This document shows positions 2,791-61,494 of a stretch of 64,000 nt of DNA, piece by piece. The stretch comes from Candidatus Fimenecus sp. (GTDB lineage Bacteria; Bacillota; Clostridia; Oscillospirales; Acutalibacteraceae), in NCBI GenBank assembly GCA_045543095.1, contig JAZQMC010000001.1, positions 623-64,622 on the forward strand. Direction: 5' to 3'. A program made the translations under genes and the position numbers. A model generated the notes under the pieces. It was not told the DNA's origin and did not search any database. It saw nothing but the letters and a program-made list of their open reading frames with translations. How positions within the stretch are numbered: the first letter of the stretch is position 1; each line of letters begins with the position of its first letter.

Positions 2791-3900
2791 TTGTCAAATC
2801 ATCCTTTTGACTTGCAAAAAATCTGTGATGTTTTTTCTATTGGCGGAACATTTACAGGATACGAAAAGATTAACAATGGTCATGTTAACAGCACTTTCAC
2901 TTTAATCTTTGAAGAAAACGGGGATGTTAAAAAATATGTTCTTCAAAAGGTAAATACTGAAGCGTTCAAAAATCCCGAAGGACTTATGAATAACATTGTC
3001 GCAGTTACAAGCCATATTCGTAAAAAGAATGAGGAATTGAATATTCCTTGGGCAGACCGTGGTACACTCACTTTTCTTCCCTGCAAAAACGGGAAATACT
3101 ATTTCATTGATGAAAAGAATGATTGTTGGAGAGTGTATAAATACATAGATGATGTTTACACCTGCAACTCAATTAGCGATGAACAGGTTTTCTGTAATGC
3201 GGGTATTGCTTTTGGTGCATTCCAGAATCTTCTTTCAGATTTTGACGGCTCAACGCTCTTTGAAACTATTGAAAAATTCCACAACACTGTTTCACGCTTT
3301 GAAAACCTTAAAAAAGCTATCGAGGAAAACCGTTCAGGCAGACTTGACAATGTTAAGGACGAAATTGAGTTTGCATTAAGTCACGAAGCAGAAACTCATA
3401 TTCTTGTTGATTTGATTGATGAGGGTAAACTCCCCTTGCGAGTTACTCATAACGACACAAAACTTAACAATATTCTTTTTGACAATGTTTCAAACAAGGG
3501 TATCTGCATTATTGACCTTGATACTGTTATGCCCGGTCTTTCACTTTACGACTTTGGTGACAGCATCCGTTTTGGTGCAAATACAGCAGCTGAAGACGAG
3601 AAAGATGTTTCTAAAGTTTCATTAAGCCTTGAACTTTATGAGGCTTATGTAAAAGGTTATTTAAGCAGTGCAAAAGATGCACTCACTGACCTTGAAAAAG
3701 AACTTTTGCCATTCGGTGCAAAAATGATGACCTATGAATGCGGAATTCGTTTCCTTACCGACTATCTTAATGGCGACATTTATTTCCATACCGAATATCC
3801 CGAACACAACCTTGTTCGTACACGTACACAGTTTGCACTTGTTACTGATATGGAAAAGAAAATGGACAAGATGCTTGAAATCACAAAGAAATATTGCTGA
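2791..3900 (+). CDS. APH-fold sugar kinase, N-acetylhexosamine 1-kinase (NahK)-like phosphotransferase
   Basis: Brenner/APH catalytic motif HNDTKLNNILFD and DLDTVMPG...YDFGDSIRF. I prefer the TTG start at 2791, which is 8 nt after GAGG. The track's GTG at 2782 overlaps the SD. Confidence 0.7.
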   Translation: MSNHPFDLQKICDVFSIGGTFTGYEKINNGHVNSTFTLIFEENGDVKKYVLQKVNTEAFKNPEGLMNNIVAVTSHIRKKNEELNIPWADRGTLTFLPCKNGKYYFIDEKNDCWRVYKYIDDVYTCNSISDEQVFCNAGIAFGAFQNLLSDFDGSTLFETIEKFHNTVSRFENLKKAIEENRSGRLDNVKDEIEFALSHEAETHILVDLIDEGKLPLRVTHNDTKLNNILFDNVSNKGICIIDLDTVMPGLSLYDFGDSIRFGANTAAEDEKDVSKVSLSLELYEAYVKGYLSSAKDALTDLEKELLPFGAKMMTYECGIRFLTDYLNGDIYFHTEYPEHNLVRTRTQFALVTDMEKKMDKMLEITKKYC

Positions 3901-30757: not shown

Positions 30758-30790
30758 GTAGGGCGGGGTCTTGACCCCGCCGATTTTTAT
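30758..30790 (+). terminator. intrinsic terminator carrying the dispersed GTAGGGCGGGGTCTTGACCCCGCC element
   Basis: GC-rich hairpin followed by GATTTTTATT. An identical 24-mer occurs inverted at 49235-49258. Confidence 0.75.
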
Positions 30791-49226: not shown

Positions 49227-49258
49227 CAAAAAACGGCGGGGTCAAGACCCCGCCCTAC
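49227..49258 (-). terminator. intrinsic terminator after eda carrying the GTAGGGCGGGGTCTTGACCCCGCC element
   Basis: The minus strand reads GTAGGGCGGGGTCTTGACCCCGCCGTTTTTT. Confidence 0.7.
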
Positions 49259-49374: not shown

Positions 49375-50031
49375 CTATTTATTTGCAAGTTCTGCACGAG
49401 CAAGTTTGATATTTTCTACAAAACGCTTACCTGTTTCGGTAATCTTCTTGTAGTCGCCTGTCTTTGCACCTGCTGTAAGTGATGAGCCTGCACCAACTGC
49501 AACAGCACCTGCTTTAATCCATTCGCCAACGTTGTCAGCATCAACGCCACCTGTTGGCATCATTTTAGCATAAGGGATTGGACCCTTGATGTCTTTGATA
49601 ATCTTTGGTCCGAAAAGGTCTGCAGGGAAAACTTTAAGAATATCTGCTCCGTTTTCCATAGCGAGTAAGCCCTCGCGAACGGTCATAATACCGGGCATCA
49701 TCGGTACTCTGTAACGATTACAAAGTTTAAGTGTTTCAAGGTCAAGAGCAGGGCTAACGATGTACTCTGCACCTGAAAGCATAGCAATTCTTGCTGTTGC
49801 TGCATCAAGAACTGTACCTGCACCGAGAATAATCTCTTCAGGCGTATATCTCTTTGCAAGTTCTTCAATAACCTTGTCAGCGTGAGGAACTGTGAATGTA
49901 AGCTCAATAGCAGCAACGCCACCTTCGATACAAGCATCAGTAATTCTGATAGCCTGGTCAACTGTTTCTGCACGAACAACTGCCACGATACCGCAGTCTT
50001 GAATTCGGGTAATGATTTTTTCTTTATCCAT
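49375..50031 (-). CDS. eda: KDPG / 4-hydroxy-2-oxoglutarate aldolase
   Basis: 218 aa with AIELTF, GAGTVLD and KVFPA motifs. Lies in the kdgK/uxuA neighbourhood. Confidence 0.9.
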   Translation of the reverse strand: MDKEKIITRIQDCGIVAVVRAETVDQAIRITDACIEGGVAAIELTFTVPHADKVIEELAKRYTPEEIILGAGTVLDAATARIAMLSGAEYIVSPALDLETLKLCNRYRVPMMPGIMTVREGLLAMENGADILKVFPADLFGPKIIKDIKGPIPYAKMMPTGGVDADNVGEWIKAGAVAVGAGSSLTAGAKTGDYKKITETGKRFVENIKLARAELANK

Positions 50032-50067
50032 AATTACATCTCCAAATAATTATAATCAAAATAAATT

Positions 50068-50117
50068 CCCTCCCTCATTGAGGGAGGTGTCAAACGCTAT
50101 GCGTTTGACGGAGGGAG
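50068..50117. repeat. REP-like double-hairpin unit (left flank of the DUF559 gene)
   Basis: CCTCCCTC-att-GAGGGAGG (50069-50087), then GTCAAACGC-tat-GCGTTTGAC (50089-50109), then GAGGGAG. Overlaps the last 7 codons of the DUF559 ORF. Confidence 0.8.
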
Positions 50118-50483
50118 TTCGTTTTTATCAATCCGAGATTTTACCTCTTTATCAATTAAAGAACACACCTCATAGAAATTCTCATCGATTTCAAAATTAG
50201 TAAACCTTAAAATCTTGAGATTGTTTTTTTCTAAAAACACTGTTCGTTTTGTGTCATAATCCATTTGCTTTTCAACGAAATGACCTCCGCCATCAAGTTC
50301 AATAACCAAAGCTGCTTTATGACAATAAAAATCAACTATAAAATTATCAATTACTTTTTGACGTTGAAAACGAACCGAATAATCTTTTAAAAAGTAAAAC
50401 CAAAGTTTTCTTTCCCAAGGAGTTGCATTTTTTCTAAGTTCTTTAGCGTAGGGAATTAATTTATTGTTATATGGTAATGACAT
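50097..50483 (-). CDS. DUF559 (Vsr-like / PD-(D/E)xK-type) endonuclease-domain protein
   Basis: 128 aa with LRKNATPWERKLWFYFLK...FQRQKVIDNFIVDFYCHKAALVIELDGGGH...KILRFTNFEI, typical of DUF559. Confidence 0.85.
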   Translation of the reverse strand: MSLPYNNKLIPYAKELRKNATPWERKLWFYFLKDYSVRFQRQKVIDNFIVDFYCHKAALVIELDGGGHFVEKQMDYDTKRTVFLEKNNLKILRFTNFEIDENFYEVCSLIDKEVKSRIDKNELPPSNA

Positions 50484-50487
50484 ATTA

Positions 50488-50579
50488 CTCCCCCAGTCAA
50501 CTTCGTTGACAGCCCCCTCAAAGATGGGGCGAAAACTCCCTCAGTCACCTTGCGGTGACAGCTCCCTCAAGGAGGGAGC
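50488..50579. repeat. two tandem REP-like double-hairpin units (right flank of the DUF559 gene)
   Basis: Unit A: CTCCCCC-A-GTCAAC-ttc-GTTGAC-A-GCCCC..GGGGC. Unit B: CTCCCTC-A-GTCACC-ttgc-GGTGAC-A-GCTCCCTC-aag-GAGGGAGC. Confidence 0.8.
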
Positions 50580-50590
50580 TGATTTCAAAA

Positions 50591-51688
50591 CTATCTCTGT
50601 ACTCTTGCACCCGCACCGCTAACAATAGCATTAACTTCTTTAAGTGAAGCCATTGATGTATCACCTGGTGTTGTCATTGCAAGTGCACCGTGAGCAACGC
50701 CGTAGTTAACTGCGGTCTGTGCGTCTTCTGTTGTCATAAGGCCGTAAATAAGACCTGATGCGAATGAGTCGCCGCCACCAACACGGTCAAGGATTTCAAG
50801 ACCAGGGAGTTCAAGTCCCTTATGAACCTTGCCGTCTGCATAACAGATTGCAGACCAATCGTTAACTGTTGCAGTTTTAACTGTACGAAGAGTTGTTGCG
50901 ATAACTTTAAAGTTAGGATAAACCTTAACAACATCTTCAAGCATCTTATAGTAGCCCTCAATATTGAGTTCCTTAAGATTTTCATCGTTTCCTTCGATTT
51001 CAAAGCCAAGACATGCTGTGAAATCTTCTTCGTTACCAATCATAACGTCGATATATTTTGCAATTTCCTTATTAACTTCCTGTGCTTTTGCCTTACCGCC
51101 GATATCATTCCAGAGTGACGGACGGTAGTTAAGGTCATAAGATACGATTGTGCCGTATTTCTTTGCAGTTTTAACTGCTTCAATTGCTACTTCTGCAGTT
51201 GACTCTGAAAGTGCGGCGAAAATACCACCTGTATGAAGCCAACGAACACCGAGAGTACCGAAAATGTAATCCCAGTCAATGTCCCCTGCTTTAAGCTGGG
51301 AAATTGCAGTATTGCCACGGTCAGAAACACCGACTGCACCACGGATACCGTATCCGCGTTCTGTAAAGTTAAGACCGTTTCTTACAGTTCTGCCGATACC
51401 GTCATATTTAACCCATTTGATAAGAGAAGTATCAACGCCACCCTGCATAATAAAGTCCTCTAAAAGACGACCAACCTCGTTGTCAGCAAAAGCAGTAACA
51501 ACTGCAGTTTTCATACCGAAGCAACGACGAAGTCCACGAGCAACGTTATATTCACCGCCACCTTCCCAAGCACGGAATGAACGAGCAGTTTTAATTCTGC
51601 CCTCGCCTGGGTCAAGACGAAGCATAATTTCACCAAGTGAAATCATATCAAACATACAATCTTCTTTTTTTCTGAGATTTAAGTTCAT
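50591..51688 (-). CDS. kdgK: 2-dehydro-3-deoxygluconokinase (PfkB family sugar kinase)
   Basis: 365 aa with the PfkB C-terminal motif DRVGGGDSFASG. ATG at 51688, 8 nt after GGAGG. Confidence 0.82.
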   Translation of the reverse strand: MNLNLRKKEDCMFDMISLGEIMLRLDPGEGRIKTARSFRAWEGGGEYNVARGLRRCFGMKTAVVTAFADNEVGRLLEDFIMQGGVDTSLIKWVKYDGIGRTVRNGLNFTERGYGIRGAVGVSDRGNTAISQLKAGDIDWDYIFGTLGVRWLHTGGIFAALSESTAEVAIEAVKTAKKYGTIVSYDLNYRPSLWNDIGGKAKAQEVNKEIAKYIDVMIGNEEDFTACLGFEIEGNDENLKELNIEGYYKMLEDVVKVYPNFKVIATTLRTVKTATVNDWSAICYADGKVHKGLELPGLEILDRVGGGDSFASGLIYGLMTTEDAQTAVNYGVAHGALAMTTPGDTSMASLKEVNAIVSGAGARVQR

Positions 51689-51731: not shown

Positions 51732-52580
51732 TTAAACACCTGAATAAGCTGAAAAACCACCGTCAACGCAAATGCTTGTACCTGTGATAAAGCTTGAGTA
51801 TGCTTCGTCGCAAAGGAAAAGAAGTGCACCTGTAAGCTCTTCTGACTCACCAAATCTCTTCATAGGTGTTGCGTTGAGAATTTTATTTGTACGGGCTGTT
51901 GGTGTGCCGTCTTCATTCCAGAGGAGAGCTTTATTCTGGTTTGTTGAGAAGAATCCGGGAGCAATAGCATTTACACGAATACCAACGTCTGCAAAGTGAA
52001 CTGCCATAAACTCTGTGAAGTTCTTAACTGCGGCTTTTGCTGCTGAATATGCCGGAATTTTTGTAAGAGGACGATAAGCATTCATTGATGTAATATTGAT
52101 AATGCAGGTGTTCTCTTTTTCAGCCATATCGCGTGCAAAAACCTGTGTAGGAATAAGTGTGCCAAGGAAATTGAGATTGAATACAAATGAAATTCCGTTT
52201 GCATCAAGGTCAAAGAATGTCTTGATGTTTTCGTCCTTTTCAATAAGGTCAATCTTTTCAAGAGTTTCTTTTGTTGTTGTGCCCTTGGGGTTATTACCGC
52301 CTGCACCGTTAAGAAGAATATCGCAAGTTCCGAGTTTCTCATTGATTATATTGCGAGCATTCTCCATACTCTCTTTTTCAAGAACATTACAACCAACCGC
52401 AATAGCCACACCGCCGTCAGCAACGATTTCGTCAGCAACTTTCTGTGCCGCTGCTTCATTTAAGTCAAGGATTGCAACCTTAACACCCTGCTTTGCAAGT
52501 GATTTTGCGAAATCTGCACAAAGAACTCCGCCACCACCTGTAACTACTGCTACTCTGCCTTTTAAATTCTCGTGTACCAT
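51732..52580 (-). CDS. SDR family oxidoreductase, likely D-mannonate/fructuronate oxidoreductase type
   Basis: 282 aa with TGGGGVLC (TGxxxGxG) and YSAAK catalytic motifs. Adjacent to uxuA and kdgK. Confidence 0.75.
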   Translation of the reverse strand: MVHENLKGRVAVVTGGGGVLCADFAKSLAKQGVKVAILDLNEAAAQKVADEIVADGGVAIAVGCNVLEKESMENARNIINEKLGTCDILLNGAGGNNPKGTTTKETLEKIDLIEKDENIKTFFDLDANGISFVFNLNFLGTLIPTQVFARDMAEKENTCIINITSMNAYRPLTKIPAYSAAKAAVKNFTEFMAVHFADVGIRVNAIAPGFFSTNQNKALLWNEDGTPTARTNKILNATPMKRFGESEELTGALLFLCDEAYSSFITGTSICVDGGFSAYSGV

Positions 52581-52741: not shown

Positions 52742-53788
52742 CTATTTGTTTCCTTTCTCAACTGCTTCAAATAAGCCGTTTATGTATGTAGCACCAAGTG
52801 CTCTGTCAAAAAGTCCGTAACCGGGTTTTCCTGTTTCGCCCCAAATCATTCTGCCGTGGTCAGGACGAACATAACCATCAAAGCCTGTATCTACAAGTGC
52901 TTTAACAACCTCATACATATCAAGACTACCGCAATCTGAAAGATGTCCGCTTTCTTCAAAGCTTCCGTCCTCCATAATCAAAATGTTTCTGATATGCATA
53001 AATGCAATTCGGTTCATTGCACTATATTTTCTAATCATTTTTACTACGTCATTTGATTTTGCACAACCTAAGGAGCCTGTGCAAAGGCAAAGACTGTTTG
53101 CTTCACTATCCACAAGTTTTAACATTCTGTCAATGTTTTCTTCGCAAGTGATAATTCTCGGAATACCAAAAATCGGATATGGCGGGTCATCAGGATGAAT
53201 TGCCATTTTAACGCCACATTCTTCGGCAACAGGAATAACTTTTTTAAGGAATTTTTCAAGATTTTTCCAAAGTCCCTCTTCGCCGAGTTCACCATAAGCT
53301 GAAATTAACTCTCTGACTTCTTCCTGTGTGTAGCTTGAATCCCAACCGGGAAGATGAATATCATCTTTGAGTGGGTCAAGACCTTTCATCTGTTCCCAAT
53401 ACATAACAAGACTTGTTGAGCCATCCTCTGCCTCTTTATCAAGCTGTGTACGAGTCCAGTCAAAAACCGGCATAAAGTTATATGTTACGCATTTAACGCC
53501 ATATTTTGCACAACGGCGGATATTTTCACAATAAACCTCTAAAAGCTCGTCAACATTATCTCTGCCAAGCTTAATGTTTTCGTGCACGGGAATTGATTCG
53601 ACAACGTCAAAAACAAGACCGTTTTCCTCGCATTGTTTTACCATTTTCTCGATTGACTCTTCCGGCCAAACCTCACCCGGTTTTACATCATAAACGGCAC
53701 TAACAATGCTTTTCATATTTGGAATCTGACGAATGTATTGCAACGAAATGGGGTCACTTTCGCCATACCAACGGAATGACATTTTCAT
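52742..53788 (-). CDS. uxuA: mannonate dehydratase
   Basis: 348 aa. The N-terminus MKMSFRWYGESDP is typical of UxuA. Confidence 0.9.
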   Translation of the reverse strand: MKMSFRWYGESDPISLQYIRQIPNMKSIVSAVYDVKPGEVWPEESIEKMVKQCEENGLVFDVVESIPVHENIKLGRDNVDELLEVYCENIRRCAKYGVKCVTYNFMPVFDWTRTQLDKEAEDGSTSLVMYWEQMKGLDPLKDDIHLPGWDSSYTQEEVRELISAYGELGEEGLWKNLEKFLKKVIPVAEECGVKMAIHPDDPPYPIFGIPRIITCEENIDRMLKLVDSEANSLCLCTGSLGCAKSNDVVKMIRKYSAMNRIAFMHIRNILIMEDGSFEESGHLSDCGSLDMYEVVKALVDTGFDGYVRPDHGRMIWGETGKPGYGLFDRALGATYINGLFEAVEKGNK

Positions 53789-61460: not shown

Positions 61461-61494
61461 CAAAAGATAACGGCGGGAGCAACCCCCGCCCTAC
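61461..61494 (-). terminator. intrinsic terminator (variant of the GTAGGGCGGGG element)
   Basis: The minus strand reads GTAGGGCGGGGGTTGCTCCCGCCGTTATCTTTT, directly after the stop at 61499. Confidence 0.6.

Follow-up and report, generated by a model that had tools for sequence, protein, structure and literature searches.

Inverted repeat units with a predicted triplex signature flank a DUF559 gene at a clostridial kdgK–eda junction

The DUF559 insertion between kdgK and eda

A 64,000-nucleotide stretch of DNA from Candidatus Fimenecus sp. (contig JAZQMC010000001.1 of assembly GCA_045543095.1, positions 623 to 64,622), hereafter called the window, carries a small gene of the DUF559 family between kdgK and eda. 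Inverted copies of a composite palindromic unit lie on either side of the gene, an arrangement that an earlier sequence-only reading of the window had recognized and whose sub-parts proved to be as described there. Each unit comprises a first hairpin (A), a second hairpin (B), and a short tail. Here we consider how the gene and the units are associated, at this locus and elsewhere, and what that association might mean. The five genes around the locus, from uxuA to eda, all lie on the minus strand according to open reading frame (ORF) calls and Pfam matches. The parts are listed below, where “gene strand” denotes the strand of the DUF559 gene.

49375–50031, minus strand: eda (2-keto-3-deoxy-6-phosphogluconate aldolase), the downstream neighbor (Pfam, relatives)
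50032–50068, minus strand: AT-rich spacer from the element to eda, with a −10-like TATAAT and the eda Shine–Dalgarno sequence GGAG
50069–50117, plus strand: downstream unit, type T2, inverted relative to the upstream units (sequence, fold, strict triplex finder)
50069–50087, plus strand: its hairpin A, CCTCCCTC-att-GAGGGAGG, followed by T
50089–50109, plus strand: its hairpin B, GTCAAACGC-tat-GCGTTTGAC
50110–50117, plus strand: its tail, GGAGGGAG
50097–50483, minus strand: DUF559 gene, 128 aa, Vsr-like PD-(D/E)xK fold (Pfam PF04480)
50488–50530, minus strand: proximal upstream unit, whole (sequence)
50512–50530, gene strand: its hairpin A, GCCCCATC-ttt-GAGGGGGC, with one A.G mismatch, followed by T
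50496–50510, gene strand: its hairpin B, GTCAAC-gaa-GTTGAC, followed by T
50488–50494, gene strand: its tail, GGGGGAG, which is the Shine–Dalgarno sequence 4 nt before the ATG
50536–50579, minus strand: distal upstream unit, type T1, whole (sequence, fold, strict triplex finder)
50561–50579, gene strand: its hairpin A, GCTCCCTC-ctt-GAGGGAGC, followed by T
50544–50559, gene strand: its hairpin B, GTCACC-gcaa-GGTGAC, followed by T
50536–50542, gene strand: its purine tail, GAGGGAG
50580–50590, minus strand: 11-nt spacer from the kdgK stop codon to the element (comparison of filled and empty junctions)
50591–51688, minus strand: kdgK (PfkB kinase), the upstream neighbor (Pfam)
51732–52580, minus strand: short-chain dehydrogenase gene (context)
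52742–53788, minus strand: uxuA (context)

As had been proposed, the element supplies the Shine–Dalgarno sequence of the gene, through the proximal tail, and the final six DUF559 codons (LPPSNA) plus the stop codon, which lie within the downstream unit. The sequence TGACNGRGGGAG occurs in three perfect copies in the 64 kb, all at the locus, with a fourth site at one mismatch (about 0.5 expected), and the pattern CCCTC-N3-9-GAGGG is found in the window at the locus only (0.04 expected). A strict generic triplex-motif finder likewise matches only the DUF559 flanks in the real window and returns 0 matches per 64 kb of shuffled sequence. The units have a GC fraction of 0.58–0.60, compared to 0.30 for the ORF and about 0.40 for the window as a whole. 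Folding z-scores range from −4.6 to −5.7 in three of the four folded strands (−5.0 to −5.7 for the downstream unit), and the right flank scores −2.4 on the gene strand. An Rfam search over 49900–50750 gave nothing close to any gathering score.

Comparison of the kdgK–eda junction among relatives bears out the suggestion that the DUF559 gene and its units are an insertion into this gene pair. Relatives with Eda proteins of 86–89% identity have empty junctions of 12 nt, which were read in L081, L083, and L085–L087, and gene tables give an equal 12-nt gap for L088–L090. Four other species-level genomes (L001–L004) carry a DUF559 gene with units at the same junction. The empty sites hold no units at all, which indicates that gene and units arrived or left this site together. 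The site also remains polymorphic. For example, L350 encodes an Eda protein identical to that of the window (with eda DNA 92–94% identical to the window and L002), and its 62-nt spacer contains a hairpin of the GTAG-tagged repetitive extragenic palindrome (REP) type, with no DUF559 gene and no units. This spacer shares its eda-proximal part with filled alleles. L350 is a mosaic allele, because its kdgK end is like that of the empty lineage, and it looks like the product of recombinational replacement of a filled allele.

The insertion is old. Synonymous divergence (dS) of the DUF559 gene between the window and L001 or L002 is 0.85–1.14, compared with 0.4–1.0 for the adjoining genes, and is saturated toward L003 and L004, whereas the ratio of nonsynonymous to synonymous divergence (dN/dS) is only 0.05–0.12. 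Near-saturated dS together with low dN/dS shows that the module has long been inherited with the operon and that its protein is under purifying selection. The module had been described as either selfish or domesticated. Its long, selectively maintained residence at kdgK–eda fits domestication better than it fits active selfish mobility.

It had further been suggested that the insertion may have given eda its own promoter, and the observations on this idea point both ways. A −10-like hexamer (TATAAT, TATAGT, or TATATT) lies a few nucleotides before the eda Shine–Dalgarno sequence in all four readable filled alleles (the window and L002–L004), and the 12-nt empty alleles lack one because they are too short to hold it. 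However, a scan for the sigma-70 consensus gave zero matches at the proposed promoter site. Hairpin A of the downstream unit, together with GAATTTATTT, scores as terminator-like on the gene strand, but the T-run after this hairpin is not conserved in L002–L004.

In L084 (1844–2500; compare 2489–2500 of the empty-site contig L083, which has the same Eda), another gene occupies the kdgK–eda junction. Its 216-aa product has a membrane segment at the N terminus and a domain of the related nuclease family DUF2726, with an IELDDNSH motif. This insert is flanked by a 13-bp direct repeat, GGAGGAAAACAAT, which is a duplication of the eda ribosome-binding region, and it carries no hairpin units. The junction therefore seems to be a hotspot for small nuclease genes. 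In addition, the window contains a second, unrelated repeat family of GTAG-tagged, REP-like hairpins (GTAGGGCGGGGTCTTGACCCCGCC). Two of its copies are identical, and one lies downstream of eda with a T-run after it on its own strand.

30758–30781, plus strand: GTAG-tagged hairpin
49235–49258, minus strand: GTAG-tagged hairpin
61471–61494, minus strand: GTAG-tagged hairpin
139–162 of L350: GTAG-tagged hairpin

To our knowledge, DUF559 is a very large family that includes Escherichia coli YcjD and a member with a solved structure, and we know of no established substrate for it. The window protein matches PF04480 over profile positions 5–108 of 109 (E = 8e-27; 93.7 bits against a cut-off of 20.6), which is the only family that Pfam returns; the Vsr family profile gives no match. 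The NCBIfam YcjD model also matches, with a score under its cut-off, and an exact-sequence look-up found no identical entry. An AlphaFold2 model built from 37 homologues reaches a mean predicted confidence (pLDDT) of 87. Among solved structures a sequence profile retrieves only 3HRL (E = 3e-17), the Neisseria gonorrhoeae protein NGO0050, and this is also the best Foldseek match of the model (TM score 0.83, about 32% identity over the structural alignment). The second is the catalytic domain of the homing endonuclease I-Bth0305I (3R3P; TM score 0.82, probability 1.0), and further matches are the Vsr-like domains of AbaSI and PvuRts1I, with Vsr itself (1CW0) a distant structural match (probability 0.92, E = 0.2).

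Residues E62, D64, H68, D77, and R80 are invariant across the 37 homologues. The PF04480 match, the Vsr-like model, and these invariant residues together identify a small, stand-alone protein of the Vsr fold that is predicted to be a nuclease. The protein is a single 128-aa domain encoded between genes, without a separate DNA-recognition domain, intron, or intein. Linkage to a cytosine-5 methyltransferase gene is absent, the adjoining genes being kdgK and eda.

Hairpins and the mirror tail of the repeat units

DUF559 relatives were sought in one genome per species, which yielded 563, and the best 80 of these 563 loci (L001–L080) were analyzed. Units from such loci share a distinctive architecture. 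Hairpin B is represented by 308 perfect stems (5 bp or longer), among which 86 different arm sequences occur, compared to 20 stems in shuffled sequences, and it has a conserved GTC...GAC base and loops that are mainly GNA triloops. GNA triloops closed by a C-G pair are a hyperstable mini-hairpin motif of DNA. In a formal count on 34 aligned units (the distal unit of the window and 33 from other loci), 98.5% of cells are paired and 24 cells carry double changes, compared to 3.7 in shuffles. The covariation score was reached by 0 of 500 shuffles.

The tail follows a different rule. Only variant units are informative in this regard, because GAGGGAG is identical when read in either direction. Where units vary, the tail mirrors the purine arm of hairpin A instead of copying it directly, as in the arm/tail combinations GAGGGGG/GGGGGAG, GAGGAAG/GAAGGAG, GGGGGAA/AAGGGGG, GGGAGAG/GAGAGGG, and GGAGGGA/AGGGAGG. 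Type T2 units carry the 8-mer arm GAGGGAGG with its mirror tail GGAGGGAG. There are six variant arm/tail classes, of which GAGGGGG–GGGGGAG is the commonest informative one (39 loci). There are 55 exact mirror matches, compared to 13.6 ± 2.9 after permutation of the tails, and 3 direct matches, compared to 7.9 expected. Among motifs with non-symmetric arms near Clostridial DUF559 genes, 80 are mirror and 5 are direct. The mirror rule is seen twice in the window itself, in the proximal unit (GAGGGGG/GGGGGAG) and in the downstream unit (GAGGGAGG/GGAGGGAG).

These data contradict the earlier idea that the repeated pyrimidine and purine blocks of a unit allow alternative pairings, since a tail that paired with the 5′ arm would have to be a direct copy of the purine arm. 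Judged by comparison among units, selection demonstrably acts on three features, namely hairpin A, hairpin B, and the mirror tail.

The third strand of a purine-motif triplex is oriented antiparallel to the purine strand, with which it makes G.GC and A.AT triads. A same-strand mirror copy has the geometry of such a triplex formed within one molecule, and an intrastrand triplex is therefore predicted for these units. All three units of the window fit the scheme of a pyrimidine arm, a purine arm, and a mirror third block (G.GC and A/T.AT triads). This predicted signature places the units with the BoxC/PIT/TMECO repeats rather than with classical REPs.

E. coli has been known since the 1990s to carry BoxC/PIT/TMECO repeats, and BoxC/PIT was reportedly the subject of work by Hoyne et al. 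in 2000. We know of no account of their origin or of a partner protein. Holder et al. (2015; PMC4666352) described intrastrand triplex repeats in bacteria and equated the E. coli motif, TMECO, with the earlier BoxC/PIT. Its consensus is CCCTCNCCC-N3-6-GGGNGAGGG-N3-GGGNGAGGG, it forms a triplex in vitro with a melting temperature of 70–82 °C, and strain MG1655 has 23 copies, with types A and B in inverted doublets (PMC4666352). The same study found that TMECO marks unstable loci and is linked to genomic instability, while assigning it no known function. It also reported that purine-motif triplexes do not form in RNA, which favors a DNA-level role for the mirror tail. A search of the published TMECO type would miss the units described here because its loops are limited to 1–6 nt.

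Association of the units with DUF559 genes

The expectation that the units would cluster around DUF559 genes held in the 80 loci. A loose unit pattern found 206 units there and 0 in shuffled copies, and the region up to 300 nt from the gene has 3.8 units per kb, compared to 0.075 per kb elsewhere in the same loci, a difference of about 50-fold. A forward unit lies no more than 80 nt upstream in 53 of the 80 loci, an inverted unit is present at the 3′ end in 54, and both are present in 40. The strict triplex finder places a motif within 400 nt of the gene in 71 of the 80.

Coincidence or artefact has to be considered, for GC-rich repeats might gather beside a small foreign gene, or assemblies might be in error. 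Most of the sequences are indeed metagenome-assembled and some bins are wrong, as illustrated by L007, which is labeled “Oxalobacter” but is a Firmicute contig because spoIVA directly follows its DUF559 gene. However, isolates (Schwartzia, Sporobacter, Negativibacillus, E. coli K-12, and Deinococcus) show this layout as well, enrichment is 25- to 50-fold with zero matches in shuffled sequence, and covariation is present. We regard this explanation as extremely improbable. The “Planctomycetia” label of L039 is doubted solely by analogy with L007, and transfer across phyla, as read from the labels of metagenome-assembled genomes, was rejected because bin labels are unreliable.

The module has well-defined ends. 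The 80 loci represent at least 16 shared genomic contexts and many unique ones (including kdgK–eda, argJ–argB, gyrB–gyrA, and restriction-modification loci), and DUF559 proteins that are 80–92% identical are found in differing contexts. Related elements in different contexts (L056/L062, L053/L079, L028/L017, L011/L017, and L073/L075) can be aligned only from outer unit edge to outer unit edge, with the similarity ending within 0–6 nt of these edges. Thus, the units are the termini of a discrete module.

A reverse scan from units to genes used the exact unit pattern and covered at least 120 stretches in each of two collections. Among the matches listed, viral contigs (1.02 Mb) hold at least 285 units and 0 DUF559 genes, and metagenome contigs (0.80 Mb) hold at least 136 unit clusters and 4 DUF559 genes, all 4 of which abut units. 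Only 6 of these 136 clusters belong to the 4 genes, and about 95% of clusters lie far from any DUF559 gene. Most members of this dispersed, REP-like repeat family are therefore without the gene. They also occur as inverted doublets and alternating arrays, in both orientations and also far from genes. Gene-less forward–reverse doublets with tails inward have spacers of 20–60 nt (median 35) and mostly combine the two types (T1+T2 in 31 of 52), and T2 upstream with T1 downstream flank the gene in 21 of 41 cases. Among the matches listed, the 1.8 Mb of unit-rich DNA shows no other gene family bracketed by units, and the recurrent neighbors are ordinary phage genes. In the viral contigs (L107–L226), single units are frequent in prophages and phages of high-GC Clostridia, often within long ORFs (for example, L126 1456–1616 and 2200–2360, and L130 1307–1467), where they would add peptides of the form LPQS..TAPS..GA.

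One possible interpretation is that DUF559 is a free-standing, homing-type endonuclease, for which gene-less doublets are empty alleles that are cut so that repair copies the gene in, while a separate mechanism spreads the units. I-Bth0305I is its closest characterized structural relative, tail-inward doublets without a gene exist and are mostly T1+T2 like the gene-flanking pairs, and there is no clear target-site duplication. Insertions between conserved genes (kdgK–eda, argJ–argB, gyrB–gyrA) and the L350 allele, which resembles replacement of a filled allele by recombination, are likewise consistent with homing. However, the empty kdgK–eda sites are without any units, the homology between elements takes in the units, and doublet-only and gene-containing alleles at one site were not found. 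We consider homing into repeats unlikely.

Another interpretation is that the module is an expression cassette whose units act on the RNA of the flanked gene. The 5′ hairpins would protect the message and expose the tail as a ribosome-binding site, and the 3′ hairpins would stabilize or terminate it; the nuclease would have an unrelated job in defense or repair, and another enzyme would spread the units. In accord with this proposal, the unit tail lies 4–30 nt ahead of the start codon in 53 of the 80 loci and the 3′ unit overlaps the stop codon, the DUF559 gene is co-directional with its upstream neighbor in 41 of 55 loci, the left unit of the window is terminator-like, and some DUF559 genes sit inside restriction-modification or BREX-like loci (L016, L020, L039). 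RNA hairpins do not explain the covariation of the mirror tail, however, since the purine-motif triplex is reported not to form in RNA (PMC4666352), and the T-run is not kept in L002–L004. Units moreover occur in both orientations and far from genes, no other gene family is bracketed by them in the listed unit-rich DNA, and GNA triloops with C-G closure are a mini-hairpin motif of DNA. A cassette of this kind is improbable as the full explanation.

As judged by eye from translations, the module of L016 (around 3001–3360) lies between apparent type I hsdS and hsdR genes, and those of L020 and L039 (around 3001–3360) lie directly upstream of a PglX/BREX-like methyltransferase gene.

The association extends beyond the Clostridia. 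Six more DUF559 loci were picked for taxonomic spread before their flanks were inspected, and 5 of the 6 have strict motifs within 400 nt of the gene. For these five, 50 kb of the same replicon served as control, and motif density is 2.0 per kb near the genes compared to 0.08 per kb elsewhere (about 25-fold). In Klebsiella, a TMECO type A motif lies 69 nt from the DUF559 gene and is the sole motif in 50 kb; Deinococcus has one motif 16 nt upstream and another 3 nt downstream, Synechocystis has one on either side, Azospirillum has a doublet 36 nt upstream, and N. gonorrhoeae has a motif at 157 nt. In addition, viral contig L363 carries TMECO-like, simple-loop motifs in inverted orientation on both sides of its DUF559 gene, and viral contig L365 carries hairpin-loop motifs. 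In Deinococcus and Synechocystis, as compared with Clostridia (L001–L080), it is the purine arm of the hairpin that adjoins the start codon. The gonococcal replicon (L374 31836–34073; NZ_CP119142.1, about 56.8–59.1 kb) also shows nine triplex-finder matches spaced at about 278–281 nt. This array lies about 7 kb away from the DUF559 gene and inflates the “far” count of the control. It probably represents tandemly repeated sequence that contains GA-rich blocks of low complexity.

In E. coli K-12 (NC_000913.3 1351029–1351849, which corresponds to L347 2030–2850), the DUF559 gene ycjD lies co-directionally between sapF and fabI. TMECO no. 9 (1,351,239–1,351,204) is situated 168 nt downstream of ycjD on the same strand, and a degenerate motif overlaps the ycjD stop codon. 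With 23 motifs in 4.6 Mb, we estimate the chance of finding one that near ycjD at <1%. [quoted passage not shown] At least 80% of the sapF–ycjD–fabI stretch is present in 3,346 of 5,426 complete E. coli genomes. One genome without this stretch, O157:H7, has genes for a TetR regulator and an RND efflux protein upstream of fabI. The phylogroups that carry ycjD are A, B1, and C, whereas most strains of B2, D, E, and F have eefRABCD at that site (PMC12817139). ST69 and ST182 carry ycjD although their phylogroups are otherwise free of it. Because that island occupies the site in strains without ycjD, presence and absence in E. coli could not be used as a clean empty-site comparison.

Published TMECO counts are 13–30 in strains of phylogroups A, B1, and C, 1–2 in B2, and 6–15 in D, E, and F, where the phylogroup of each counted strain is the one we take it to have from general knowledge. 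The pattern relative to ycjD is suggestive but is confounded by phylogeny. It bears on the possibility that DUF559 serves the host by processing triplex repeats that stall replication, in which case its place between units would be a relic of joint transfer. Long vertical residence with a dN/dS near 0.1, the link of TMECO sites to genomic instability (PMC4666352), and the higher TMECO numbers in the ycjD-carrying phylogroups (13–30, compared to 1–2 in B2, which lacks ycjD) are all compatible with such a role. However, the units of the window are found only at the gene, leaving little to protect against, and the conserved inverted layout and the ends of homology are better explained by an element with defined termini, quite apart from the phylogenetic confounding of the E. 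coli correlation. On balance, a purely host-serving nuclease seems unlikely to us.

A proposed partnership and its relation to known systems

The locus is an old insertion, into the 12-nt spacer of the kdgK–eda operon, of a module made of one or two units, a DUF559 gene, and an inverted unit. The reading we prefer, to which we assign a probability of roughly 0.45, is that DUF559 is a structure-specific nuclease for these units. Binding or cleavage of the units by the protein is suggested by their association. Specifically, a unit exposed on single-stranded DNA might fold into a purine-motif triplex whose third strand, the tail, occupies the groove of hairpin A, with hairpin B as the connector between hairpin A and tail. 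DUF559 would recognize and nick this folded unit, and nicking would underlie the spread or maintenance of the units. DUF559 may thereby occupy a role like that of the REP-associated transposases (RAYTs), as an enzyme flanked by its own substrates, present in single copy, and mostly inherited vertically. As a side function, the 5′ unit could act as the ribosome-binding site while the hairpins insulate the mRNA within the host operon. A broader version of this proposal, which we put forward only tentatively and consider somewhat doubtful, is that YcjD-type DUF559 proteins are the missing trans-acting enzymes of triplex repeats (BoxC/PIT/TMECO and the present hairpin-loop variant) from Clostridia to E. 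coli, Neisseria, Deinococcus, and cyanobacteria. Their substrate would be a DNA triple helix formed within one molecule, and the REP/RAYT-like partnership would be built on a PD-(D/E)xK fold.

Several observations weigh against these proposals. Target-site duplications of at least 4 nt flank 7 of 33 elements, compared to 3.0 expected, which is not significant, and no defined target was found; this agrees with the sequence-only reading, which had seen no duplication. Recent transposition was not seen either, because each exact DUF559 protein looked up keeps one context across samples, with P0100 and P0042 present on many contigs but always at gyrB–gyrA and PfkB–DUF218, respectively. The other 63 kb of the window hold no units, so there is no visible repeat population. 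The tails that point inward in Clostridia point outward in Deinococcus (L372/L377) and Synechocystis (L371/L376), E. coli ycjD has a single downstream motif only, and the contrast of mirror and direct motifs outside Clostridia is weak (8 compared to 4). Units are absent from the more distant DUF559 relatives inspected (33–49% identity) and from the plasmid gene of strain PCC 7002. In addition, co-inheritance of linked DNA would be enough on its own to keep gene and units together after they had become joined.

Triplex repeats and the REP/RAYT logic are both already known. However, the literature searched described neither the hairpin-in-loop form of the repeat nor a pairing between triplex repeats and DUF559. 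The text of PMC4666352 does not mention ycjD, DUF559, or an endonuclease, and literature on DUF559, on ycjD, on REP doublets (REPINs) and RAYTs in Firmicutes, and on triplexes with endonucleases contained no report of the pairing. Two orphans, the triplex repeats and the DUF559 family, may explain each other. If our proposal is correct, then this would be a second REP/RAYT-like system with a different mechanism, and DUF559 would provide the first case of a nuclease that targets a natural triple helix. It would also explain why gene calls in gut Clostridia are contaminated by many GC-rich “LPQS...TAPS...GA” pseudo-peptides. Should the partnership fail, the units would still represent a new and well-defined structural variant among triplex repeats.

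Among known repeats, the units most resemble TMECO/BoxC/PIT. Both have the order pyrimidine arm, loop, purine arm, connector, and mirror purine block, both are G/C-rich, intergenic, and dispersed, and both have two subtypes that form inverted doublets (A+B in TMECO, T1+T2 here). In contrast, the arms are 9 nt in TMECO and 7–8 nt in the present units, and the 3-nt second loop of TMECO is replaced by a hairpin of 15–25 nt with the form GTCnnn-GNA-nnnGAC. TMECO/BoxC/PIT repeats are found in Proteobacteria and the present units in Clostridia, and the triplex has been demonstrated physically for TMECO whereas it is predicted from sequence for the units. Given their hairpin connector and shorter arms, we classify the units as a variant and not as TMECO proper.

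With regard to the protein, YcjD and NGO0050 share the PF04480 family and fold, and both genes have a motif within 170 nt. Like the window gene, ycjD is an accessory gene set co-directionally between two others (sapF and fabI), but it has one downstream motif and a different upstream hairpin. I-Bth0305I (of the EDxHD family) and Vsr share the Vsr-like catalytic fold. The DUF559 protein differs from them in having no DNA-binding domain, intron or intein host, or adjacent cytosine methyltransferase gene, and in its motif spacing (E62-x-D64-x3-H68).

Correia elements and the IS200/IS605 insertion sequences resemble the module in their hairpin-forming terminal inverted repeats and gene-less derivatives. 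IS200/IS605 elements also lack a target-site duplication, and hairpin ends suggest single-strand chemistry, whereas Correia elements duplicate TA and the module shows no clear duplication of this kind. Unlike miniature inverted-repeat transposable elements and small insertion sequences, the module has no DDE or HUH transposase, and its ends bear the triplex signature.

The likeness to REP/REPIN–RAYT systems, which the sequence-only reading had drawn, holds for the layout and not for the components. In both cases a single-copy gene for a nuclease (a predicted one here) lies between inverted copies of a short structured repeat. The repeat is otherwise dispersed as singlets and inverted doublets, largely without a gene, which for the present units was seen in related metagenomic and viral DNA. 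Both systems are mostly inherited vertically and show no clear target-site duplication, and in both almost all genes are accompanied by units, whereas only a few units are accompanied by a gene. However, RAYTs have the HUH/Y1 transposase fold and DUF559 has the PD-(D/E)xK Vsr-like fold. REP units are hairpins that carry a GTAG/CGTC tag, whereas the units described here have no such tag, have an outer flank of wwG followed by C or G, and add the signature of a triplex.

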